From: a virus
Taxonomy: Duplodnaviria; Heunggongvirae; Uroviricota; Caudoviricetes
Virus record (IMG/VR): IMGVR_UViG_2778261689_000001
Coordinates: 38,553 to 102,552 of that record
DNA: 64,000 nt
Strand: one strand, 5' to 3'
Part shown: in pieces, positions 3,926 to 56,500 of the stretch
How positions within the stretch are numbered: position 1 is the first letter of the stretch
Layout: every line of letters begins with the position of its first letter
Notes under the pieces: generated by a model
What the model saw: only the letters and a program-made list of their open reading frames with translations
The model's database searches: none
What the model was told of the DNA's origin: nothing
Translations under genes and position numbers: made by a program

Positions 3926-4590
3926 ACTTGCCGGGTACGTCTCCGGCGAGGGCTTCCACCTCCGTATGCTTTTCGGCGCACCGCGCCCTGGCTGCAATTC
4001 GGTAACAGGGGATGCATAACCCTGGCTTCCAGCGTGATTAGCGCTTTCAGCATGACGGGATATACCCGTAAATTCGTGGAACTGTACCCAAAGTGCTGTT
4101 AAGCACCGCTGTTACGCTGAAAAGAAAACGCAACAGGAAAGGACGCTGACCAACAGATGGCCCCTTCTCGTTCATCTGGTTAATCACACCAGCGCCCTTA
4201 CCTGTTGTGTCTCCCCGTTCCCTAATACACAGACGGGGACACTCTGCGGTCGATTTTTTGACGGGGGACGACTCATACCCCGTGGCGTCTGGCTTCTTAG
4301 GCCGCTACCATCATCAGATCATCGTTTGCATTTACTTTAATGGTCAGTTTCTAAACCGCCGCAAAGTCGCTAACCATGACGAAAACCCTGAAAAAAAACG
4401 CCCACCCGAAGATGGGCAAACTGGAAGCTCGTAACGCACTTCGGAGTTGCCACTTAGGCGCATGGTCAACCTGGCAACTCGGTGGTTTGTCTGGGAGGAC
4501 TAGGCCCAGCCATGCTTACCGCCGCGCCTGTCGCGGCTAACAGCTAAATCGCTCTATAAATCACGATTCATTGAGGCTATATTACACTAA

Positions 4591-4607
4591 TAAATTTATT
4601 AGAGCAA
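4591..4607. promoter_or_regulatory. C1-repressor operator (exact 17-mer aaatttattagagcaat)
   Basis: Matches the P1 C1 operator consensus ATTGCTCTAATAAATTT (reverse orientation); overlaps the dmt stop and lies upstream of the minus-strand tRNA cluster; flanked by a partial inverted copy (actaataaattt). Confidence 0.6.
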
Positions 4608-6863
4608 TATACCTAAAACGTCATGAGCTACACCTCGAGTGTCCCCCTTACAAGACACAGAACGTCTGGCAAAAAGAGGTTCCACTCTGAAGCCACTGTC
4701 ATGATAAAGCTCTCTGATATTTGGCGCGCCACTGTTAGTAATGAGAACCTTTGCACCTCGACGATGAGCATCCGTCAACAGAGACACCAGGCGTTTTTGC
4801 TCTTCAAACTTAAAGTCATGACCGGAATAGTTCGTGAATCCCTCTGTATTTGGAAGCGGTTCATACGGCGGATCGCAAAAGATGACATCTCCTTCTCCGG
4901 CAGCTTCAATCACCGCTGCAAAATCACCGCATACAAACTCAGACCGCCCTTCCGCACCGAGGAAGGCTTCCATCTCCTGTAATGGGAAATACGGAGTTTT
5001 ATACTTCCCATAACCGACATTGAACTCACCGGCCTGGTTGTAACGCGTCAATCCGTTAAAACAATGTCGGTTCAGGAACAAAAACGCCGCTGCGCGATGT
5101 AAATCATCATAGACTTGTTTGTTAAACGCATTCCGTACTGCCAGGTATCCTTCCTGTGTGTTGTAGTCCTGGAAGAAACGATGTGCCAGAGTGATAAGTG
5201 AATGCGCCTCGCGTTGCAGAGTCTTGTAAAAGTTAATCAGGTCAGCATTCACATCATTTAGCAGATTTTCCTGGTATCCGGCATTCATGAAGACAGCTCC
5301 GCCACCAACGAAAGGTTCAATCAGGCGCTTCCCTTCTGGCAAATAGCGAAAGATTTGTTCCAGAACACCAAATTTTCCACCAGCCCATTTGAATATGGAC
5401 CGTTCGAATTCTGCCGCTGGTTTAACTTTTCGCTCTTTTGTTTTACTTCCTTCTTTCTGCCGACATACGGCCTTAGTAATCCGATCGCCAATCCAGCGCA
5501 TTACTGGTATTGCCATACTATTGCCGATCGCTTTGTAACGCGGTCCGTCAGCTGCAAGCATCGCGGCCTCTTCTTCGCTTAAATCTGGATAGTGATTGCG
5601 AAGATATGCCAGTTCATCTGAATTAACTTTTTTACGCTTTTCCGTCGGGATCAACGTATGCCCATCAGGAAAACCTTGCAGCCTTTCACATTCGACAGGG
5701 GTAAGACGGCGGACAGCTACTTCTGCGTTTCTTACTTCATAGCAAACAGCTGTTGGATTTTTAGCCATTAGAGATGGTGAAGTATTCTTAGTTGCAGCAT
5801 GTTGTGTACCGCTCATACGCTCAGGAAAAGCCAATGTAACAAGATGCTCATGGCTTTCTTGCTCACGTGCCCGCAATGTACCATGCCCTTCTGACCAAAA
5901 ACCTGCTCCTGTGCTGCTAAAAACGGCAAGGTCAGTGGCATCTTTAAAATCTCTTGCCTTTACTGTCGATGCGGTTTCATCGTCAATATATTCCCCAAAT
6001 GCTGCCATCCTGAAAGCGTTTACGGCTTTCGTCGATTTCATACCGGGTGGAATGTCAGCGTGTAGGCATGGATTTAGGCTTTCGCCACTGATTGCAGCGC
6101 CATTTGCAATAATGGCGGAAGCGATTTCCTTCTTTTTTCGGCTCGGCGCAATATCCCGGCGCACGCCTTCGAACTCAAAAAGTACCGTTGCGGGATCGAG
6201 GTCTGTTCGAGCACTTGCGACAACAAACACGCGTCGGCGTCGTTGTGCCACTCCGAAGTATTGGGCATCAAGGATTCTCCAGGCCACCTTTCGCTGCGGT
6301 CCATAAATACAACCACACTGCGGCCACTTTGGAGCATGGCAACCGGTTTTGCCATCCCACCGCCAGAACGCGTTACTTTTTCCTGATTCAGGTCGATCAC
6401 CTGGTTCAAATGGCGCATCTTCTCCAGCCAATCCGGCAAGGAAACATCCGAAGGCGTTATCTGCCGATGACAGGACTCCTGGGACATTTTCCCAGACGAT
6501 AACTGTCGGTTTGAGGAAGGACTCAGACCGTTTGTCGTCAATTGCATTTGCAAGCTCCACATACTTCAAAGTTAGCGCGCCGCGTTCATCATCAAGCCCA
6601 CCACGTAAGCCCGCGATACTGAATGCCTGACAAGGTGTTCCCCCGACGAGCACATCAGGGGATTCGATTTCCCCAGCCAGGACTTTTTTGGCAAGTTTTG
6701 TCATGTCGCCAAGGTTGGCGACATGGGGCCAGCGGTGCGCAAGAACGGCAGATGGAAAAGGCTCGATTTCAGCAAACCACGCCGGACGCATACCCAACGG
6801 TTCCCAGGCAATACTCGCGGCTTCAATTCCACTGCAAACAGATCCATAGCACAGCTCTTTCAC
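4599..6863 (-). CDS. dmt: Fused DNA methyltransferase: N-terminal C5-cytosine MTase plus C-terminal Dam-like N6-adenine MTase (P1 Dmt-like)
   Basis: 754 aa; N-terminal [23 protein letters not shown] (PCQ catalytic Cys) and ENVPG motifs; C-terminal CDPPYEP (DPPY) motif. Confidence 0.85.
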
Positions 6864-8113: not shown

Positions 8114-8130
8114 ATATTTATTAGAGCAAT
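8114..8130. promoter_or_regulatory. C1-repressor operator (atatttattagagcaat, 16 of 17)
   Basis: Operator motif at the 5' end of the minus-strand uhr/hrdC/dmt gene string, in the divergent intergenic region. Confidence 0.55.
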
Positions 8131-14263: not shown

Positions 14264-14285
14264 AACAAGTGACTTTCAATAAAAT
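14264..14285 (+). promoter_or_regulatory. Late-promoter motif (aacaagtgact-N5-taaaat) upstream of the head/tail gene block
   Basis: Same box-N5-minus10 arrangement recurs at 33502, 49830, 53573 (minus) and in weaker form at 40207 and 63135 (minus); a second box-like palindrome cacacaagtgccttgtg lies at 14304-14320. Confidence 0.45.
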
Positions 14286-43909: not shown

Positions 43910-46897
43910 ATGAGCTTAAGCGATCAGGTGGTAATGGCCACCAGCATAGAAACGCTGATCGAGCTGCTAAAAAACCTGCCCGATTTCGGGCGGGTTTCGT
44001 ATGTGGTGACAGCGAAGGGAGACGAGGTAAAAACAGCGTTTGATATCGTCGATGCCTCAGCTCTTTTGGTATCCAATACTCTGGACGGGAAAATTAATCC
44101 GGACTATCCCCAGGAACTTCAGCCGCGCGACCGGACCCGCGCATCCAGCCTTCTTCAGGTTAACCAGATATCCAAGGATTTGCGGCCTGCTCAGCTTACC
44201 GATTCCGGTTTATCCAGCCATGGAGCGCCGATAATTGGTGAGGACAATGCCGTTGAGTCAGGTAATGGACGGACCATGGGGATCATCAAAGCCTATCAGG
44301 ACGGCAATGCGGATCGGTATCGTGAGTACCTGATTGATCATGCGACCGAATTCGGCATACGACCTGAAAAGGTTGAATCAATGGCGGCTCCGGTACTGGT
44401 GCGCCGCCGGTTAACTAAGGTTGACCGCGTTCAGTTTGCCAAGGACTCAAATATTTCTGATCTTCAGGAAATGGCAGCCAGTGAAAAGGCTTTTGTTGAT
44501 GCCGACAACATAACTTCGGCGATGATGGCGCTGTTTAACCCGTCAGAAAGCGGAGATCTGCTTAGCCGCAGTAATGACGCGTTTATCCGCGGATTCATGA
44601 CGCAAGTTGGTGCCACACAGGCTGCTGGCCTTGTAACGGAAGATGGGCGACCAACACGGCAACTTGTAGACCGTATACAAAACGCGATCTTTGCCAAGGC
44701 ATATAAGGATGCGCGCCTGGTAAGGATGGTTGCAGAAGAACCTGATCCAGATATGCGTAATGTTCTGACGGCGCTTAATGCGGCAGCCAATGATTTTGTC
44801 CAGATGCAGGCTTTATCAGGTGAAGCGCACAAGCAGGCTGTGACAACTATTGTTGATGGTATTGAGACAGCGGATAGTCTCGATAAAAAGGCGCTGGCGG
44901 CATTGAAAGATGCGGTAGACCTGGTAAGGCAATCGAAGGAGTCAGGCCAACATATTACCGATGTTATTGCTCAGGGGGATATGTTCAGCGAAACAGCCCC
45001 GGAAGTGAAAGCTCTCGCGTTATTCATCGTCGCGAATAACCGTAGCGCGAAGCGTATGGCCACCGCCTTTAAATTGATGGCTCAACGTATCAATGATGAG
45101 TTACAGCACCAGTGCCAGGCGCTGGGGGATATGTTTGGCGGTGGTGATGTGTCGTTACAGGATATCCTTCGCCAGGTGTCTCAGGAACTGGAAAACGAAG
45201 GCATGCAAGGGATATCCGGCGGTCTTTTCGAGTCCGTTTCCGGCGGTAGTTACAACGGTGTTGCTCCATATACCAGTTTGCTATTACATCGGGCATCCGG
45301 CATCAAAGACATTATTCATCTGATCAGGCTGCTTTCCCGTACAGATCCCCAGGATGAACAGCTTGTTCAAGTGCTTGCGCATTTTGTTCGAATGCCTGTT
45401 GCCGACGTGAAAAAATGGTGCCGATTATTCGGTATCAGCAATTCGTTACTTCGCGGCTTGTTAAATCACGCATCCTCCCTTGGGCGCGATGGCTTTGACG
45501 AGATAGCGCAGGCGATAAAAAACGGAGATATGCCACCAGCTATTGACTGGTTTTCCATTCGCCCAACCAGGGTGAAAGCATTCCTTAGCGCGGCGCATTC
45601 GGCATCACCATTGGCAGAAATGGTTCAGAGGTTGTCGCTCATATTCACAGACCATACCGCGTTGGGTGATCTGACTCTGGACGAGATGAAAGAAGCCTCC
45701 ATTCAGTGGGCCGATCAACAAAATGAGGTTAACTCAGACTTCTTGCCAGCATTCAGGAAGGCCGTTAGTAAAGCGGATGATGCCCGTGGAATTCTGAAGG
45801 CATTTAAGGCATTGCAAAGTCGGGTTAATAAACATGTCGGTGATATCGATGGGGTAACGGCGGAAGGCAGGGATATCCTTAAAGAGCACGGTATAACGCC
45901 AGAGTTTATTGATGAGATCAGGACGGATATGCAGCGTGAGGTCGTATCGTCCCTGCAAATTGTAGCCAGAGCATTGGCGGATGCTAATCCGAAGAGTGCG
46001 GCCATTGTTAACCGGGTTATTGGTGATATTGAAGCATCGGAGGGCATGGGGGCGCTGAAACTCTTCCTTTCGCGAGCGTTTAATCCTAACGGCAATATTC
46101 TCCCTGGCATTATTGGTGAGGCTAAAAGGTATGTCAGTGAAGAAGAACTTGAGCAGCTTGACCAACTACTTAAGCGATTCTCATATAACCCGCAGACACG
46201 CTGGCAAATGAATCAGCGAAGTATGGGTTCGGTCCACGAGAAAGTGTTATCTGCCATGAACAGTGCGATCGCAAACTCATCCGTATCTGAAGAAAAAGCT
46301 CTTGAGTGGGCCGACTCTTTTATCACGGAAGAAGTGGAAGAAGCCCGCGCTGGACAGAATGGTGGGATAGACCTGCGCAAGGAACTTGCTGATATTTATC
46401 GCCTGACCGGCGGTAAAATTTCGACCTTATCAAAGGTGGTTCACCACCAGGGAAGGGCATATGCAAATCTTAATGGTGTTGTTGCTGTCAATTTGAACGA
46501 TGAAAATGCAAGTGCACTGTGGCACGAGCTGGGTCATCATCTTGAGTACAGTAACCCTGGTTTGTTAGAGAAAGCCCGGTCATTCCTGAAGGCCAATGTT
46601 GAAGGGGATAAGCCATCTTTCGTTAATATCGGTGGGCGTGGCAAGCCTGAATGGTGCTTCAGATCTCGATTGAGTAATATTTATATGGCGAAGGTATACC
46701 CGCCAGCCTCAGTGAGTAACTCCGGGAAAATTCGGCAGAAAGCACCGACTATTTCAAAAACATCAGCAACGGAAGTATTCTCTATGGCTCTTCAGTTGTA
46801 TCATGACAAAGAGGCCGCTGCCGCATCACTGATGAATGGTGACGGATTGCTGGAACTGTTATTAGGTGTGGCAAAGGAGCTAAATAATGCAGATTAA
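43910..46897 (+). CDS. Large Dar-operon protein (P1 DdrB position) with an HExxH zinc-metallopeptidase-like motif
   Basis: 995 aa; WHELGHHLEYS near the C-terminus. Confidence 0.55.
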   Translation: MSLSDQVVMATSIETLIELLKNLPDFGRVSYVVTAKGDEVKTAFDIVDASALLVSNTLDGKINPDYPQELQPRDRTRASSLLQVNQISKDLRPAQLTDSGLSSHGAPIIGEDNAVESGNGRTMGIIKAYQDGNADRYREYLIDHATEFGIRPEKVESMAAPVLVRRRLTKVDRVQFAKDSNISDLQEMAASEKAFVDADNITSAMMALFNPSESGDLLSRSNDAFIRGFMTQVGATQAAGLVTEDGRPTRQLVDRIQNAIFAKAYKDARLVRMVAEEPDPDMRNVLTALNAAANDFVQMQALSGEAHKQAVTTIVDGIETADSLDKKALAALKDAVDLVRQSKESGQHITDVIAQGDMFSETAPEVKALALFIVANNRSAKRMATAFKLMAQRINDELQHQCQALGDMFGGGDVSLQDILRQVSQELENEGMQGISGGLFESVSGGSYNGVAPYTSLLLHRASGIKDIIHLIRLLSRTDPQDEQLVQVLAHFVRMPVADVKKWCRLFGISNSLLRGLLNHASSLGRDGFDEIAQAIKNGDMPPAIDWFSIRPTRVKAFLSAAHSASPLAEMVQRLSLIFTDHTALGDLTLDEMKEASIQWADQQNEVNSDFLPAFRKAVSKADDARGILKAFKALQSRVNKHVGDIDGVTAEGRDILKEHGITPEFIDEIRTDMQREVVSSLQIVARALADANPKSAAIVNRVIGDIEASEGMGALKLFLSRAFNPNGNILPGIIGEAKRYVSEEELEQLDQLLKRFSYNPQTRWQMNQRSMGSVHEKVLSAMNSAIANSSVSEEKALEWADSFITEEVEEARAGQNGGIDLRKELADIYRLTGGKISTLSKVVHHQGRAYANLNGVVAVNLNDENASALWHELGHHLEYSNPGLLEKARSFLKANVEGDKPSFVNIGGRGKPEWCFRSRLSNIYMAKVYPPASVSNSGKIRQKAPTISKTSATEVFSMALQLYHDKEAAAASLMNGDGLLELLLGVAKELNNAD

Positions 46898-47192
46898 AAT
46901 CGCAGCGCCATTAGGCGGAGATGCCATTATCGAATTTGATGATAATGAAGAAGTTTCCGGGCGTTTAAGCATTATCTCCGGTGACATTACCGAGGACATG
47001 ATCGCTGAAGCCATAGCTGGGGCAAATCCCAATAGCTATATGGGATTCGTTAACACCCTTGATGCTCCCGCAAGTGATGTTCTCCGAACGCTGCATCTTT
47101 ACGCTGGCTGGTTTGTCGATTGGCCAGCAGTAGAGGGTGGCGATGAGGACGACGATGATTTTGGGGATCATGTAGACCAGATCGTATATTAA
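46887..47192 (+). CDS. Small acidic protein (hypothetical), last gene of the Dar operon
   Basis: 101 aa; acidic C-terminus GGDEDDDDFGDH. Confidence 0.45.
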   Translation: MQIKIAAPLGGDAIIEFDDNEEVSGRLSIISGDITEDMIAEAIAGANPNSYMGFVNTLDAPASDVLRTLHLYAGWFVDWPAVEGGDEDDDDFGDHVDQIVY

Positions 47193-47804
47193 CTCCCTGA
47201 TAGTGCACAAATAATCTGTTCTGATATGTTAATTGTGTACTTAAAGTAAACGCGTAGTGGCTTGCTTTAGGTTATGGAAGCAAGCTATTGCCTAATATGT
47301 TAGATCAAAAAATTTTAATTTTTGCGTTTCGCTCACCACATATTGAACACTTTAGCCGATCTTTTAATTCTTCCAGAGTCAATCCTGAAGCTACATATTG
47401 TTTAATATCTCTTCGTCATTGCATATTCAGAGGGTAAAGATATACACATACTAAAATGAATTGGCTTAGCTCGTTATTAATCAGAATTCGATGAGACTAC
47501 TCCATTTTAGGGAATAACATGTATAACTAAAACACATCGTCTTTAACTCTCACAATATAGATTCAGTTTAATACCCAATCGACAGTAATTAATTTGACTC
47601 TACTTTTTAAGTAGATTTCAAATCCACATCCATTAAAACCCTATTAATTAACAGACTATCTATTTTTGCAGTTATTATTTTTGTGCTAATTTAATTGTTT
47701 GTCTTTTGTGCTTATTGTTGATTGTGTTTTGTTCTATTTTGTCAATTTTTATTCTGTGAATTGAGATTTTTCTAATAGTCCATTGGGTTTTCAAGGTTAT
47801 TATT

Positions 47805-47820
47805 TGTGATTTTGATCACA
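47805..47820. promoter_or_regulatory. Perfect CRP-type site tgtga-ttttga-tcaca upstream of the porin gene
   Basis: Exact TGTGA-N6-TCACA palindrome 112 bp upstream of the porin ATG within a very AT-rich 700-bp region. Confidence 0.4.
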
Positions 47821-47931
47821 AAAATACCTTGATTTTTATTTGCAAAACTTGAAACACGAATCCAAAAAAGATAAACATTTGTCCGCAGTGACCTCTTTTC
47901 TACTGAAAAGTTCAATCTAAAGGGCAAAAAA

Positions 47932-49047
47932 ATGAAAAAAATCACAGTGGCACTTTCTGCGGTTGCAGCATCAGTCCTGATGGCAATGTCTGCACAAGCG
48001 GCAGAAATCTATAACAAAGACGGTAACAAACTGGATCTGTACGGCAAAGTTAATGCAGAGCATTACTTCTCTTCTTCAGCTAGTGATGACGGGGATAAAA
48101 CTTATGCTCGTATGGGTTTCAAAGGTGAAACTCAGATTAATGACCAGTTAACCGGTTTTGGTCAGTGGGAGTACGAATTTAAAGGTAACCGTACTGAAAC
48201 TGAAGGTTCTGATAAAGATAAAACTCGTCTTGCGTTTGCAGGGCTTCGCTTTGGCGATTATGGTTCGCTCGACTATGGTCGCAACTACGGTGTAGCGTAT
48301 GATGTTGGCGCTTGGACTGACGTGCTGCCGGAGTTTGGTGGAGATACCTGGACTCAGACTGATGTATTTATGACCCAGCGTGCTACTGGCGTCGCGACCT
48401 ATCGTAACAATGATTTCTTCGGCTTGGTTGATGGTCTGAACTTTGCTTTGCAGTATCAGGGTAAAAATGATAGTGCTGCAAAAGTGAACAACTGGAAAGG
48501 CCGCGACGTAGTTGAATCTAATGGTGATGGCTTCGGTCTGTCAGCTACTTATGATTATGAAGGATTTGGCATTGGCGCAACTTATGCAAAATCTGACCGT
48601 ACTGATGGACAGGTATCCTATGCTAAAGCCCCTCTGAATCTGAATGCCTCTGGTAAAACTGCTGAAGTATGGGCTACGGGCCTGAAATATGATGCAAACA
48701 ACATTTACCTGGCTACAACTTATTCTGAAACTCAGAATATGACAGTCTTCGGTGATGACCATATCGCGAACAAGGCGAAAAACTTTGAAGCCGTTGCTCA
48801 ATACCAGTTTGATTTCGGCCTGCGTCCGTCCATCGCTTACCTACACTCTCGCGGTGAAAATATTGGTGCGTTCGGTAACCAGGATCTGGTTGAATACATC
48901 GACGTGGGCGCGACTTATTACTTTAACAAAAATATGTCCGCTTTCGTTGACTACAAGATCAACCTGATTGATGAAAGTGAATTTACCAAAACATCTGAGG
49001 TTGCAACCGACAACATCGTTGCTGTTGGTATGACCTACCAATTCTAA
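47932..49047 (+). CDS. General porin of the OmpC/OmpF/NmpC(OmpD/Lc) family, with signal peptide
   Basis: 371 aa; signal peptide ending SAQA; [47 protein letters not shown] and C-terminal VGMTYQF match enterobacterial general porins, closest in pattern to the NmpC/Lc group. Confidence 0.9.
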
Positions 49048-49202
49048 TTTTGGTAGGTAAGAATATGCGGGAAGGGAGTGATGTCACTGCCCGCATATAG
49101 GTGGCACCCTCATGCCACCTTTGAAGAGGCAATAAAATTGCCTCTTCTCAATTTAACTTCATGTTATTTATTACCTTTTTATTAATTTGAAACTCTATTG
49201 TT

Positions 49203-49230
49203 GGGGCGCTTTGTTGCGCCCATTTTTTTA
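49203..49230 (+). terminator. Rho-independent terminator downstream of the porin gene
   Basis: ggggcgc-tttgtt-gcgccc followed by attttttta; further hairpins at 49062-49146. Confidence 0.6.
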
Positions 49231-49280
49231 CACCAATTAGGTAAAGTTATTTTTAAGTAATCGAGCAACTTTCAGCCCTC

Positions 49281-49769
49281 TCAAAATGGAATATCGTCTT
49301 CAAAGTCCATTGGAGGTTCGCTATTGGCGTTGCTCTGAGGTTTACTGCCACCGCTGTATTGCTGGTGGTTTTGAGGTTGGTTTGACTGCCCCCAGCCATT
49401 TGAGAATTGTGAATCGTCGCGGCGAGCGCCGATCATTTGCATGGTGCCGCCCTGGCTGACGATAATTTCCGTCGTGTAACGATCTACACCGGCGTCATCT
49501 GTCCACTTACGGGTTTTAAGTTTCCCTTCGATGTAGACCTGAGAACCTTTTCGTAAATACTCACTCGCAATTTCAGCAAGTTTCCCGAACAAAACGACTC
49601 TATGCCATTCTGTTTGCTCTTTCTGTTGGCCCGTTTGCTTGTCGCGCCATGATTCATTTGTTGCGATGCTTAGTCTTCCGACCGTTCCGCCATTTGGTAT
49701 ATACCTGATCTCCGGGTCTTGCCCCAGGGTACCAATCAGGATGACTTTGTTTACACCGCGTTGTGCCAC
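49281..49769 (-). CDS. ssb: Single-stranded DNA-binding protein Ssb
   Basis: 162 aa; [20 protein letters not shown]-fold start; Gly/Gln-rich linker; C-terminal acidic tail DFEDDIPF; GTG start. Confidence 0.9.
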
Positions 49770-49788: not shown

Positions 49789-49805
49789 AAATTAATTAGA
49801 GCAAT
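49789..49805. promoter_or_regulatory. C1-repressor operator (aaattaattagagcaat, 16 of 17) in the ssb/lyz divergent region
   Basis: 20 bp upstream of the ssb start. Confidence 0.5.
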
Positions 49806-53584: not shown

Positions 53585-56500
53585 ATGAACAAGCTATCTA
53601 TGGGTGTGTTTCGCTGTTCAAGTGTCAGCGAAATATTGAAATACATTAGGGCAATAACATCTCACCGAGCGCCGATTAAATACGGCGTGGAAAAGGTGGA
53701 AGGCAAAAGCTATGACCGACTGCGCCGGGAGGCGAATCAGAAGGCGATAGATTTGCTTAATTCGCTGGTGGACGGCGCGACACTGACAGATGAACAGCGC
53801 CAGATCCTGGCCGGGTACACTGGTGAAGGCGGCATTGGCGGGTCCGTCTCCGAATATTACACACCAAAGCCTATCGCTGAAGGTGTCTGGGAGATCATGA
53901 AGCTCTACGGCGCGGACGTAGGTAACACTCTGGAACCATCGGCGGGAACCGGCGTTTTTAATGAGACAAAACCGGTTGGTACGGTGATGACCGCGACTGA
54001 GATCAGCAGTGTTTCCGGTCGTATAAACCAGTTGTTACACCCGGAAGACAGCGTACAGATTTCCCCGTTCGAACAGCTGGCTATAAACACGCCTAACGAT
54101 TCATTCGACCATGTTGTGGGTAACGTTCCGTTCGGCGGTCGTGATAACACACGCAACATCGATAAGCCTTACGCAGAAGAAACGGACATGGGGTCTTACT
54201 TCATGCTCCGCATGCTGGACAAGATAAAACCTGGCGGATTCATGTGTGTGATTGTGCCGCCGTCCATTGTTTCAGGTTCAAACATGAAACGGTTACGCCT
54301 GCGCCTATCACGGAAAGCTGAATTTCTTGGTGCCCACCGCTTGCCTACCGGTACTTTTGACGCAAACGGGACCAGTACAGTTGTTGATGTGGTGCTGATG
54401 CGCAAACATCCGGCAGAGATGGCTGAGAAAATCCCCCTGGTGGATGAAAGCACTCTCGAATCGGCAAATGTGCTTTGGCCAACGTTTATTTCTGGCAAGT
54501 GGTTTGAAAAGGACGGCCGCCGGTTTGTTCATGGCACCCAGGAAAAGGGCTTCCAGGGGCGTATTGAGGTTCGTGCCGACGGTCAGATTGATAACCAGGC
54601 TCTTAAAGCGAAGCTGATTCATCGTTTCGAAAGCCGTATCGACTGGTCTTTGCTCGATATGGCTGAACCGTCACCGACCGCAGACGTTGTTGGTGAAGGG
54701 GAAATGCGCCTGATTAATGGCGTATGGCAAAAATATGCTGGTGGTCGCTGGATTGAAGCTGATGCAGGGAAGGAACTTAAGATCGATGCTGCCAGTTATG
54801 GCGCGGATAGCTGGGAGGCTCTTCAGCGTAACCTGACTACAACAGAAGGCCGTCTCGGCATGACATTTACCCAGATGGCAAATGTCCGCGATAAGTACAC
54901 CACATCAATCAGCGACGATATGGTGCAGCTGGTGGACTGGATTAACAGCCAGCCTGAAAAATACCGTGAACGCTTGTATCGCGGGGCGATGATTGGCCGG
55001 ATGTTAATTGAATATCAGGACATGAAGGCCGCCGGGCATAGTGCTGAACAAATCGAACAGCAGCGCCTTTCTCTGGTATCCCGTTTGCAGGCAGAGATTG
55101 ACCGTTTTGGTAACCCCGGTCGCGGTCCGATAGCGAAATTATCGGGGAGCGGTGCGCGCGCCTGGTTTGCTTTCCGTGGTGCAATTAAGCTGGATGGCAC
55201 TATTTCTGACGAGCTGACAGGAAAACTGGTTACGCATGATTCCAGCGCCAGTTATGACTCCACCAGCTATCAGGACACCCTGCGTTATCTCTACAGTGAT
55301 CTCACTCGCGATCCAATCCAGCTCGATGATTTCCGCCTTGCGTTTACCGGCGAACTGCCAGCCAGTGATGACGAGTTGCTTAATTTATTGGCCAGCACCC
55401 CTGGCATTGCGGTTTCACCGTATGGCGGGATTGTTCCGTTCGCCCGCGCCACCAGCGGCGACATTAACGAGATAGTGGCTCCAAAACAGGAATTCCTCGC
55501 CACGCTCCCCGACGGTCCAGTAAAGAACAACGTCCTTAATCAGCTGGCAGCGATCGAAGAGAAGCGCATCAAGACGCCAGCAGAGAATATCCGCTTTAAG
55601 CTCAATAGCCGTTGGTTCGACCGTTCCGTCATTCTGGAGTTTTTGCAGGAAAACGGCTATCCGGATCTGCGCTATGTGCAGTCAGTGCAGCTGGAAGGCG
55701 ACGAAATGGTTTCTGACACCTATCACGGTGGTGATGGCCTGTTCGTCGGGCACCGATACGGTGTCGTCCAGCGTAAGGATAAAGAAACAGGCGAGATCCG
55801 CTACGAGTGGGACCGTAAATCAGGTGAAAACGCGACCGGGTTCCCGGCACAGCTGGAAAAGTATCTCAATGGTGCGCGTATCGGTGGCAAAGATAGCGCG
55901 ACGGCGAACGGCTACCGCGAGCAGATGGCACTGCTTGAGGACCAGTTCAATAAGTGGATCAAGACGCACGATCGCTACGATGAGCTGGTTGCTAAATACA
56001 ACGATGTGTTCAATAGCAATATCCCGTATGAACACTCTGGCGATCCGCTTGGGTTGAAGGGATTAAGCGGTAAGCGCCAGCCATTTGATTACCAGAATAG
56101 CGAGGTGCGCCGACTGTCCGAAGATGGGCGCGGCATCCTGGGCTTCGGCACCGGGCTGGGTAAAACCACGACCGCGCTGGCGCTTGAGGCGTTCAACTAT
56201 GAGAACGGTCGCTCCACCCGTACTGCGTATGTAGTGCCTAAATCAGTGCTGGAAAACTGGTATTACGAAGCAAAAGAATTCCTGAGTGAAGAGGCATTCA
56301 GTAACTACCTGTTCGTCGGTCTTGATGTGCTGATGGATGGCGATCAGATTCGCCAGGTGCAGGTGCTCGATGAGAACGGTAAACCTGTTCTTGGTACTGA
56401 TGGCACTCCAGTTATGCGCGATGCTCTTAAGCTGGCAGATGAAGCCACTATCACGGCGCGGATGAACGCGATCCCGCACTCAAATTACCGTGCAGTCGTG

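Follow-up and report, generated by a model that had tools for sequence, protein, structure and literature searches.

The nmpC locus of phage P7 and its boundaries

The window, as we call the whole stretch of DNA analysed (64,000 nucleotides), is 100% identical to phage P7 (AF503408). In that record the open reading frame at 47932–49047 (+) is annotated as nmpC, with a signal peptide. By sequence, the island that a sequence-only reading had flagged as a candidate for lysogenic conversion corresponds to this previously annotated porin gene of P7; the finding is real and largely known. The features recognised in and around the island are the following.

46887–47192, + strand: odaA, an hxr homologue with which the late dar operon ends; part of the flanking backbone, ~90% identical to P1 hxr and named in the P7 record
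47222–47295, + strand: dar-operon terminator region with a 15-bp stem (47254–47291); backbone, also in P1
47305–47415, − strand: isaB 3′ remnant, the final 36 codons and stop; P7 has lost the 5′ part by deletion
47415–47446, + strand: left end of the cassette region; P1 keeps the same stretch immediately left of IS1, and it includes the IS1 target CAGAGGG(C/T)A
47447–47773, + strand: AT-rich upstream spacer, ~26–34% GC, specific to P1-type elements
47774–47931, + strand: regulatory region conserved among nmpC/lc cassettes (alignment with ECSD228, PA-2 and JL22)
47802–47823, no strand assigned: CRP-type site ATTTGTGATTTTGATCACAAAA, core at 47805–47820, centre 119 nt 5′ of the ATG
47849–47877, + strand: candidate sigma-70 promoter, with −35 TTGAAA (47849–47854), a 17-nt spacer and a weak −10 TAAACA (47872–47877)
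47932–49047, + strand: nmpC, a 371-aa general porin precursor; signal peptide encoded by 47932–48000, cleavage after AQA
49048–49230, + strand: structured 3′ UTR of 183 nt, homologue of the lc/nmpC 3′ UTR (IpeX), with hairpins at 49063–49098, 49099–49120 and 49123–49147, then the linker and the terminator
49155–49175, + strand: core of the single-stranded linker, AACTTCATGTTATTTATTACC; by prediction an antisense seed for the translation-initiation regions of ompF and ompC
49204–49230, + strand: Rho-independent terminator, GGGCGC-N6-GCGCCC and a T-run
49281–49769, − strand: ssb, backbone flank

The island had been delimited as 47200–49230. The features reported for it are present at those coordinates, whereas its first ~250 bp proved to be P1-type backbone including the isaB remnant, and the cassette itself extends from about 47447 to 49230. 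The segment 47193–47446 is ~90% identical to P1, which rules it out as foreign DNA; within it are the terminator of the dar operon and, on the − strand, the final 36 isaB codons, whose translation, RRDIKQYVASGLTLEELKDRLKCSICGERNAKIKIF up to the stop, matches the C-terminus of P1 IsaB. The terminator region folds at −21.3 kcal/mol (z −3.1), and a terminator is annotated at the equivalent position in the P1 record AJ000741. Plasmids L094 and L095 have an intact isaB upstream of the cassette. On the other side isaA, which in P1 lies between ssb and the position of the cassette, is deleted in P7.

The contrast in composition with the flanking backbone, also claimed from the sequence, was confirmed: GC content is 0.26–0.29 over 47400–47850 and ~0.48–0.52 in the flanks. 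AT-rich DNA upstream of a gene fits the expectation for H-NS-silenced genes. The spacer at 47447–47773 was found at 96 plasmid places and two chromosomal ones and is almost confined to P1-type plasmids. It has no homology to the upstream DNA of the lambdoid copies or of ECSD228, and an Rfam search of the spacer gave no match; it is possibly a target for H-NS-type silencing. A divergent upstream sRNA, in the manner of micF and ompC, was considered and rejected (no Rfam hit, no minus-strand terminator found).

Host-type control signals precede the porin gene

Among P1-type copies the regulatory region (47774–47931) is 95–100% conserved. The exact TGTGA-N6-TCACA palindrome reported there is indeed present at 47805–47820 as TGTGATTTTGATCACA. 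It is the only perfect match in the 64-kb window, where 0.12 are expected, and at least one perfect match arose in 10 of 100 shuffles. In seven cassettes the site lies 117–120 nt from the ATG, with a core matching at 10/10 positions in the P7-type copies and 8/10 in the lambdoid ones, and the 1986 record of PA-2 lc carries a CRP-binding annotation at the equivalent offset. JL22, L093, L094 and L096 have the identical 22-mer; in L095 a single flank position is substituted, which leaves the 16-bp core unchanged in all five (5/5). Reading the palindrome as an FNR site was rejected because the half-sites GTGAT/ATCAC carry the CRP-type G. The related ompD gene is CRP-activated (PMC5137417).

Downstream of the CRP-type site, the TTGAAA element is invariant in P7, PA-2, ECSD228 and JL22. 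A consensus promoter scan gave no call for TTGAAA-17-TAAACA, so that the candidate promoter is proposed from conservation and spacing. It would place CRP near −71.5 (class I), and we infer that the nmpC promoter depends on CRP.

Within 47193–49280, searches for a P1 C1 operator and for the −22 box of late promoters found none. Judged by sequence, the control signals of the cassette are host-type, with phage-type ones absent. This bears on the possibility that the porin serves the lytic cycle or the virion, being read through from the late dar operon without any lysogenic conversion. In favour of such read-through, nmpC lies on the same strand directly downstream of that operon; we nevertheless regard it as very improbable. 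The terminator annotated between the two in P1, with its hairpin conserved in P7, and the lack of a late −22 box nearby both count against it, as do the host-type control signals and the lambdoid copies, which have the same CRP site and run antiparallel to the late genes.

The porin belongs to the Lc/NmpC clade and is maintained

The prediction of a 371-aa porin with a signal peptide was fully upheld, by a Pfam match and by the signal peptide annotated in the record. NmpC matches PF00267 (Porin_1) end to end with 494.2 bits (E 3e-148, cut-off 23.7), residues 29–371 aligning on profile positions 1–337 of 337. Its translation shows a Sec signal peptide, the expected mature N-terminus, the loop-3 motif PEFGGD and a C-terminal Phe, and solved OmpC/Omp36 chains align with it end to end (E 2e-136). 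A trimeric diffusion channel of 16-stranded beta-barrels is the probable structure.

Comparison with other porins, which the sequence-only reading had proposed as a check, gave Lc/NmpC as nearest: identity is 79–84% to PA-2 Lc and lambdoid NmpC, then 69–74% to the OmpD type, and 59–65% to other porin paralogue loci of other genera. At the DNA level P7 nmpC is 65–70% identical to E. coli ompC and ompN. These values place the P7 porin, as far as sequence can tell, in the Lc/NmpC clade, nearer to Lc/NmpC than to OmpC, OmpF, PhoE or OmpN.

Against eight other copies the dN/dS of nmpC is 0.06–0.17, and dS reaches 0.24 among P1-type copies. The gene is therefore under purifying selection and its protein is maintained.

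A structured, IpeX-like 3′ UTR separates the gene from its terminator

A strong terminator after the porin gene had been reported and is present at 49204–49230; it does not, however, stand directly behind the gene, since 157 nt of structured 3′ UTR intervene. This IpeX-like element had been overlooked. IpeX is described in secondary sources as part of the porin transcript and as a repressor of ompC and ompF (PMC12197685, PMC5069750, PMC3333887), and its location in the porin 3′ UTR is that of the P7 element (PMC12197685). The latter likewise lies between the porin stop and a Rho-independent terminator, on the porin strand.

The P7 3′ UTR is collinear with those of PA-2, DLP12 and lambdoid copies at ~54% identity overall, and the blocks invariant between the two types include the linker core and the terminator. 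It folds at −66.9 kcal/mol (z −6.1), and the PA-2 3′ UTR, with a like architecture, at −62.9 kcal/mol (z −9.2); each type, folded separately, gives three hairpins, a linker and the terminator. Helix 2 is 98% paired, with compensatory pairs at 3/8 (7 sequences, two types); covariation of helices 1 and 3 and of the terminator is unscorable as the two types align 1–2 nt out of register. The terminator is conserved in PA-2 and in the P1 scar described below, with stem changes that preserve pairing.

Conservation of the 3′ UTR above that of synonymous sites was rejected as proof of selection, because recombination mosaicism explains it equally well. Rfam contains no IpeX model or family. The only Rfam hit was a GcvB match of 30.5 bits, under the threshold of 42; it was set aside because it recurs in near-identical P7-type copies only, not in PA-2, and hence gives no independent support. 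The 3′ UTR is the part of the cassette most likely to alter the porin content of the host.

The linker is predicted to pair with ompF and ompC

The linker core is invariant in all P7-type copies, and a 14-nt core of it is also found in the lambdoid type. Duplex energies were calculated for the linker alone against 60-nt start regions and ranked against 6394 natural decoys. With ompF the P7 linker reaches −24.5 kcal/mol, a stability equalled by 0.09% of the decoys, and with ompC −20.8 kcal/mol (0.4%); with its own nmpC leader it gives −10.9 kcal/mol, equalled by 33%. As a control, MicF with ompF gave −27.4 kcal/mol. AT-matched decoys weaken the ranks of the P7 linker to 0.8% (ompF) and 1.2% (ompC). 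The linker is thus predicted to be antisense to the start regions of ompF and ompC and not to that of nmpC itself, and repression of OmpF and OmpC by the 3′ UTR may be inferred from this modelling. AT-rich linkers in general pair readily with AT-rich start regions.

The best pairing of the P7 linker is with the ompF start region and the ompC start codon, and that of the DLP12 linker with the ompC Shine-Dalgarno region (−26.7 kcal/mol, 0/6394 decoys). In the original IpeX paper, complementarity to the ompC leader was reportedly not apparent. The 12-mer UUAUUUAUUACC occurs both in MicF and in the P7 linker. Homology to MicF was rejected: this is the one common 12-mer (p ~0.03 by shuffles) and Rfam gave no MicF hit. 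The single likeness was therefore treated as an effect of the same ompF target and not of common descent.

P1 has lost the cassette, which is widespread among P1-type plasmids

P1 had been said to carry IS1 at the equivalent place, correctly. Beside this IS1 we found a deletion scar of the cassette, in which both cassette ends are kept and fused; its alignment score was reached by 0/5000 shuffles, and with IS1 removed P1 is identical to 47415–47446 at 29 of 32 nt. Retention of both ends next to IS1 shows that P1 lost the porin, not that P7 gained it: the ancestor that P1 shares with P7 already had the cassette, and a deletion of ~1.7 kb removed it from P1. The description of the porin as horizontally acquired cargo holds in so far as homology supports a mobile porin gene with host-type control, a candidate for lysogenic conversion; to say that P7 gained it relative to P1 reverses the direction. 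Since P1 thrives without it, the cassette is dispensable.

In PLSDB the cassette was found in 114 of 487 P1-type plasmids (~23%), and 112 of the 114 matches span at least 80% of it. Many P1-type plasmids originate from clinical or livestock isolates in which resistance genes are also present. The locus is the variable region RD-2 of P1-type elements, and several plasmid copies are IS-interrupted (PMC6906374), as also seen in our sequence comparison. Apart from one island flanked by IS elements and rare integrated copies, no E. coli chromosome has a copy of more than 80% identity. As expected of a moron, the cassette has its own putative promoter and terminator, a composition unlike the backbone, and presence/absence variation among close relatives.

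These distributions also dispose of mis-assembly, which the sequence-only reading had named as a possible refutation: porin DNA of the host chromosome, wrongly fused to that of a phage, would account for the break in composition, the one observation in its favour. It was excluded because the same junctions recur in independent records, namely four of phages (two of P7 and two of other phages) and ~100 complete plasmids from different laboratories (more than 90 independent plasmid assemblies). The near absence of similar chromosomal copies and the two cassette ends retained in P1 likewise oppose an artefact, to which we attach a negligible probability.

A more serious alternative is that nmpC is an intact, normally silent gene like that of K-12, held down by nucleoid proteins on the AT-rich DNA and without regular effect on the lysogen. 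The low GC content upstream, the IS-interrupted copies and the loss from P1 would all agree with this, and the K-12 copy is an IS5-disrupted pseudogene described as unexpressed (PMC3333887). On the other hand, the low dN/dS over a dS of this size points to ongoing selection on the protein, neither the CRP core nor the linker core varies, nearly all plasmid matches cover most of the cassette, and conditional silencing is itself compatible with activation by CRP. We therefore hold a purely quiescent passenger to be rather unlikely.

A predicted porin swap

We favour, with a probability of roughly 0.7, the reading that the region is the nmpC cassette of P7, a host-type expression module (CRP-dependent promoter, porin, IpeX-type 3′ UTR and terminator) carried on a plasmid prophage, for which a porin swap is predicted. 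cAMP-CRP at 47802–47823 would activate the weak sigma-70 promoter, probably from about −71.5. The nmpC product would be a trimeric general-diffusion porin of the Lc/NmpC/OmpD clade. The 3′ UTR would act as the P1-type version of IpeX, its linker pairing with ompF and ompC mRNAs over their ribosome-binding sites and start codons but not over those of nmpC, and the Rho-independent terminator would close the module. When glucose is scarce, the lysogen would make the phage porin, and the same transcript or a processed fragment would lower OmpF and OmpC. Such a swap would change how permeable the outer membrane is and deprive other phages of their receptors. It presupposes that nmpC is expressed in lysogens, which is likewise a prediction.

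Porin composition influences beta-lactam entry and the host range of phages used in therapy. The gene and its porin family were already known, and their finding in itself adds little. What is added is that an IpeX-type riboregulator also seems to travel with P1-type phage-plasmids, in a variant whose predicted seed favours ompF, and that the P1 scar beside IS1 decides in which direction P1 and P7 came to differ at the nmpC locus.

A bolder proposal, which we advance tentatively and with somewhat less than even confidence, is that the P1-type cassette is a two-part porin-swap module with a distinct IpeX variant, in which a single transcript under CRP control both supplies the phage porin and silences ompF and ompC. 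If this is true, it would represent a hitherto unexamined modifier, acting on permeability to antibiotics and on how susceptible the host is to porin-dependent phages. As about one quarter of P1-type phage-plasmids (from E. coli, E. fergusonii, Klebsiella and Salmonella) carry the cassette, the modifier would be widespread, and laboratory P1 would be a deletion derivative lacking the porin-swap function.

Comparison with known systems

The nearest relative is Lc (protein 2, J02580) of PA-2, also a cassette borne by a temperate phage. Its porin is 79–80% identical to that of P7, and it has in common with P7 a CRP-type site whose centre is 119 nt upstream of the ATG, the TTGAAA element, the leader blocks, and a 3′ UTR in which three hairpins are followed by the linker core UGUUAU-N-UAUUACC and the terminator. 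The two differ in several respects. The CRP core is imperfect in PA-2 (AGAGA-N6-TCACA, 8/10) and perfect in P7; the P7 3′ UTR has 19 extra linker nt and is ~54% identical; surface-loop segments of the porins differ, with a 6-aa insertion in P7; and the AT-rich upstream DNA of PA-2 is unrelated to that of P7. In PA-2, an integrated lambdoid genome, Q and the lysis genes flank the cassette, whereas in the plasmid prophage P7 its neighbours are isaB and ssb; more generally, lambdoid copies are found between quuD and essD and the P7 copy between odaA/isaB and ssb. From their shared parts, the P7 and lambdoid copies appear to be one cassette on different carriers, a self-contained unit of CRP site, porin, IpeX-like regulatory 3′ tail and terminator that P7 shares with lambda-like phages.

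The nmpC/ipeX locus of the cryptic prophage DLP12 in E. coli K-12 is a PA-2-type cassette with a 3′ UTR essentially identical to that of PA-2. Its IpeX is described as an RNA of 167 nt that derives from the porin transcript and reduces OmpC and OmpF (PMC12197685, PMC5069750). K-12 nmpC is split by IS5, whereas P7 nmpC is intact, and the predicted seed preferences diverge, the DLP12 linker favouring the ompC Shine-Dalgarno region and the P7 linker the ompF start together with the ompC start codon.

OmpD of Salmonella and its Enterobacter and Citrobacter orthologues are the next-closest porins (69–74% identity to P7). They are chromosomal core genes with the signal peptide MKLKLVAV...; most have a GATC-N-GATCACA half-site 150–161 nt upstream, with no full CRP palindrome at −119, and in their short 3′ UTRs the IpeX linker motif is absent. 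MicF, finally, is a separate gene divergently transcribed next to ompC, whereas the P7 element is a 3′ UTR outside the MicF family; the two are alike by functional analogy, each being a porin-linked RNA antisense, in P7 by prediction, to the ompF start region.

The nmpC porin cassette of phage P7

The sequence here matches Enterobacteria phage P7 (AF503408 / NC_050152) at 100% identity, and the P7 record already names the porin ORF nmpC ('NmpC precursor', signal peptide included). Neither the gene nor this type of porin is new. In P7, nmpC is flanked on one side by odaA, the hxr homologue and final gene of the dar operon, and on the other by ssb. The corresponding P1 interval is isaB-IS1-isaA, in agreement with the sequence-only reading, which had placed IS1 here. 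Among P1-type elements this locus counts as a variable region, RD-2 (PMC6906374). The AT-rich DNA, palindrome, porin gene and terminator described in that reading were all recovered:

47447-47773, AT-rich spacer
47805-47820, TGTGATTTTGATCACA, CRP-type core
47849-47854, + strand, TTGAAA element, invariant across all cassette types
47932-49047, + strand, porin ORF of 371 aa (ORF reading)
49204-49230, + strand, GC-rich hairpin and T-run, terminator (from sequence)

GC content falls to 0.26-0.29 across ~47400-47850, compared to ~0.5 in the flanks. This drop is real, but the island does not start at 47200 as proposed, since direct alignment extends P1 homology to ~47418. Mis-assembly with host chromosome was excluded as a source of the junctions because identical ones recur in four phage records and ~100 complete plasmids.

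NmpC belongs to the general porins, as claimed: it gives a full-length Pfam Porin_1 match (494 bits) and can be aligned over its whole length with OmpC-type porins of solved structure (E 2e-136). Its signal peptide ends in AQA|, loop 3 holds a PEFGGD motif and the C-terminal residue is Phe. Its closest relatives (79-84% identity) are lambdoid phage porins, PA-2 Lc and DLP12-type NmpC, together with many lambda-like phage genes annotated 'OmpD'. A second tier (69-74%) comprises the OmpD-type porin encoded on the chromosomes of Salmonella, Enterobacter and Citrobacter, and remaining paralogues are at ~60%. Differences between NmpC and Lc are grouped in short blocks, one of them a 6-aa insertion, as would be expected of surface loops. 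The dN/dS ratio of nmpC against eight other copies (0.06-0.17) shows it to be under purifying selection.

Distribution of the cassette

Among 487 PLSDB plasmids having the adjacent prt/odaA backbone, 114 (~23%) carry the cassette. They are mostly from E. coli, with some from E. fergusonii, Klebsiella and Salmonella, and a few copies are IS-interrupted. The E. coli ECSD228 chromosome (L004, 4873-8430) holds a mosaic whose regulatory region and 3′ UTR are of P7 type and whose coding region is of Lc type. An ISKpn26 element borders it on one side and IS3/IS30/IS21 fragments on the other, and a type I restriction-modification operon adjoins it. Such a mosaic among IS elements speaks for recombination and phage-independent movement of the cassette.

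A deletion scar in P1

For comparison with P1, its IS1 was removed together with a single copy of the duplicated 9-bp target CAGAGGGCA. The first 32 nt then match P7 47415-47446 (29/32) and the following 28 nt match the P7 linker, the single-stranded stretch preceding the terminator (49155-49182, 24/28). Next comes a terminator whose stem carries a compensatory change, and then P7-matching DNA to ~49254. The score of this alignment was reached by 0/5000 shuffles. The cassette ends retained in P1 (L002, AF234172) are:

P1 5862-5893, equivalent to window 47415-47446
P1 6662-6760, equivalent to window 49155-49254

IS1 and its target duplication were inserted at the left end of these fused ends. 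Because both cassette ends persist fused in P1, the alignment identifies P1 as a deletion derivative at this locus, with a scar in place of ~47447-49154; the sequence-only reading, which took the porin as horizontally acquired cargo, had the direction of change relative to P1 wrong. Most parsimoniously, the cassette was present in the P1/P7 ancestor and the porin was lost from P1, since the linker and terminator that P1 retains have homologues in the lambdoid lc 3′ UTR.

In P7 itself, isaA is lost entirely and isaB has lost its 5′ part. Plasmids pEF-3 and pHNBY4G-2 have a fuller arrangement, with intact isaB, AT-rich spacer and cassette in direct succession; their isaB reaches the base where P1 IS1 starts. 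The spacer is nearly confined to P1-type plasmids, no homologue being detected outside them, bar rare cases. Some P1-type plasmids (L093 and L094, 2384-2560) keep ~155 extra bp between cassette terminator and ssb, including 87 bp with 76% identity to the 3′ portion of P1 isaA, a further intermediate state of the locus.

CRP-type site and control signals

TGTGATTTTGATCACA, the palindrome noticed in the sequence-only reading, is the sole perfect TGTGA-N6-TCACA of the window (0.12 expected by chance). Across seven cassettes, the distance from the best CRP-type core to the ATG is 117-120 nt. P7-type copies and one chromosomal island (ECSD228) have a perfect core, whereas that of lambdoid copies scores 8/10 (AGAGA-N6-TCACA). 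The 16-bp core is identical to that of P7 in 5/5 other P1-type copies examined, and the 22-mer site in four of these, L095 having one flank substitution. The core also sits within a longer imperfect palindrome (47791-47832, TCAAGGT...TGTGA-N6-TCACA...ACCTTGA), exceeding the length needed by a CRP site; in ECSD228 its arms are perfect over 14 nt each (GATATTATTTGTGA / TCACAAATAATATC).

The TTGAAA element and a weak TAAACA, 17 nt apart, form a candidate promoter, with CRP inferred near -71.5 (class I); a consensus scan did not call it. Neither a P1 C1 operator nor the late-promoter -22 box AACAAGTGA was found within 47193-49280. In the P1 dar-operon record a terminator is marked immediately after hxr, and the P7 equivalent (47222-47295) folds a 15-bp stem. 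The control signals are therefore host-type, none being phage-type, and would fit expression from the prophage state.

Elsewhere in the window the C1 operator consensus matches seven times (0.28 expected; none in the cassette), at 4581-4608 (overlapping divergent pair), 8114-8130, 22151-22167, 23822-23838, 49789-49805 and 53639-53655, presumably the known P7 immunity operators. Annotated LPlyz (49830) and LPpro (53565) account for two exact -22 boxes; a third, at 14264-14272, is probably another late promoter.

An IpeX-like 3′ UTR with predicted porin mRNA targets

The sequence-only reading was incomplete in that it overlooked the 157 nt separating the nmpC stop codon from the terminator. This 3′ UTR aligns collinearly with those of PA-2 lc and DLP12 nmpC, themselves a nearly identical pair. 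Secondary sources describe the lc/nmpC 3′ UTR as IpeX, a ~167-nt RNA from the porin promoter, within the porin transcript, that lowers OmpC and OmpF (PMC12197685, PMC5069750, PMC3333887, PMC7177473).

The P7 and PA-2 types are ~54% identical; in the fold of each, three hairpins precede a single-stranded linker and the terminator (P7, -66.9 kcal/mol, z -6.1; PA-2, -62.9 kcal/mol, z -9.2). Pairing in helix 2 is 98%, three of its pairs being compensatory; alignment register shifts made the remaining helices unscorable. Both types share the linker core UGUUAU-N-UAUUACC; ompD-type genes on the chromosomes of other genera have short 3′ UTRs that lack it. Rfam GcvB gave a sub-threshold, full-length match at 49043-49229 (+) (30.5 bits, gathering score 42, E 2.8e-4), over a region holding an ACUUC-N-UGU stretch resembling GcvB region R2. 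PA-2 does not give this match, which recurs only in the near-identical copies JL22 (P1-type) and ECSD228, so that it probably reflects a resemblance in architecture.

The linker alone was paired with 60-nt windows around start codons, with natural (n=6394) and AT-rich decoys.

Predicted duplexes and share of decoys as stable (natural; AT-rich)
P7 linker with ompF: -24.5 kcal/mol; 0.09%; 0.8%
P7 linker with ompC: -20.8 kcal/mol; 0.4%; 1.2%
P7 linker with own nmpC leader: -10.9 kcal/mol; 33%; 33% (not significant)
DLP12/PA-2 linker with ompC Shine-Dalgarno region: -26.7 kcal/mol; 0/6394; 0%
MicF with ompF (control, known interaction): -27.4 kcal/mol; 0%; 0%

The P7 linker would form 12 contiguous pairs on GGUAAUAAAUAA and 6 on AUGAAG of ompF; on ompC it would form 11 contiguous pairs at AAUAACAUGAA and a further 7-8. 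The DLP12/PA-2 linker favours ompC over ompF; in DLP12 (L006, 5960-5995) it is strongly complementary to the ompC 5′ UTR/Shine-Dalgarno region (L007) through AAAUAAAGG and AUAUAACAGAGGGUU. The predicted duplexes suggest seeds tuned differently between the two cassette types. The original IpeX paper, Castillo-Keller et al. 2006, reportedly saw no obvious or simple complementarity with ompC, a view with which the predicted linker-ompC pairing seems at odds.

Comparison with related porin loci

Apparently unrecorded are a P1-type IpeX variant with predicted dual targeting (ompF and ompC), the cassette frequency among P1-type plasmids and the cassette scar in P1. As an analogy to Lc/NmpC, the interpretation of the sequence-only reading appears essentially right. 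In PA-2, the site equivalent to the P7 CRP-type core was annotated as CRP-binding in the 1986 record. Unlike the P7 cassette, chromosomal ompD-type genes are without an IpeX-type 3′ UTR. The ompD-type loci of Enterobacter, Salmonella arizonae, Citrobacter and Huaxiibacter (L014-L023, L049) have a conserved GATC-N2-3-GATCACA 150-161 nt before the ATG, that is, one CRP half-site at a fixed upstream distance, and the related ompD gene is reported to be CRP-activated (Santiviago 2003, as cited in PMC5137417).
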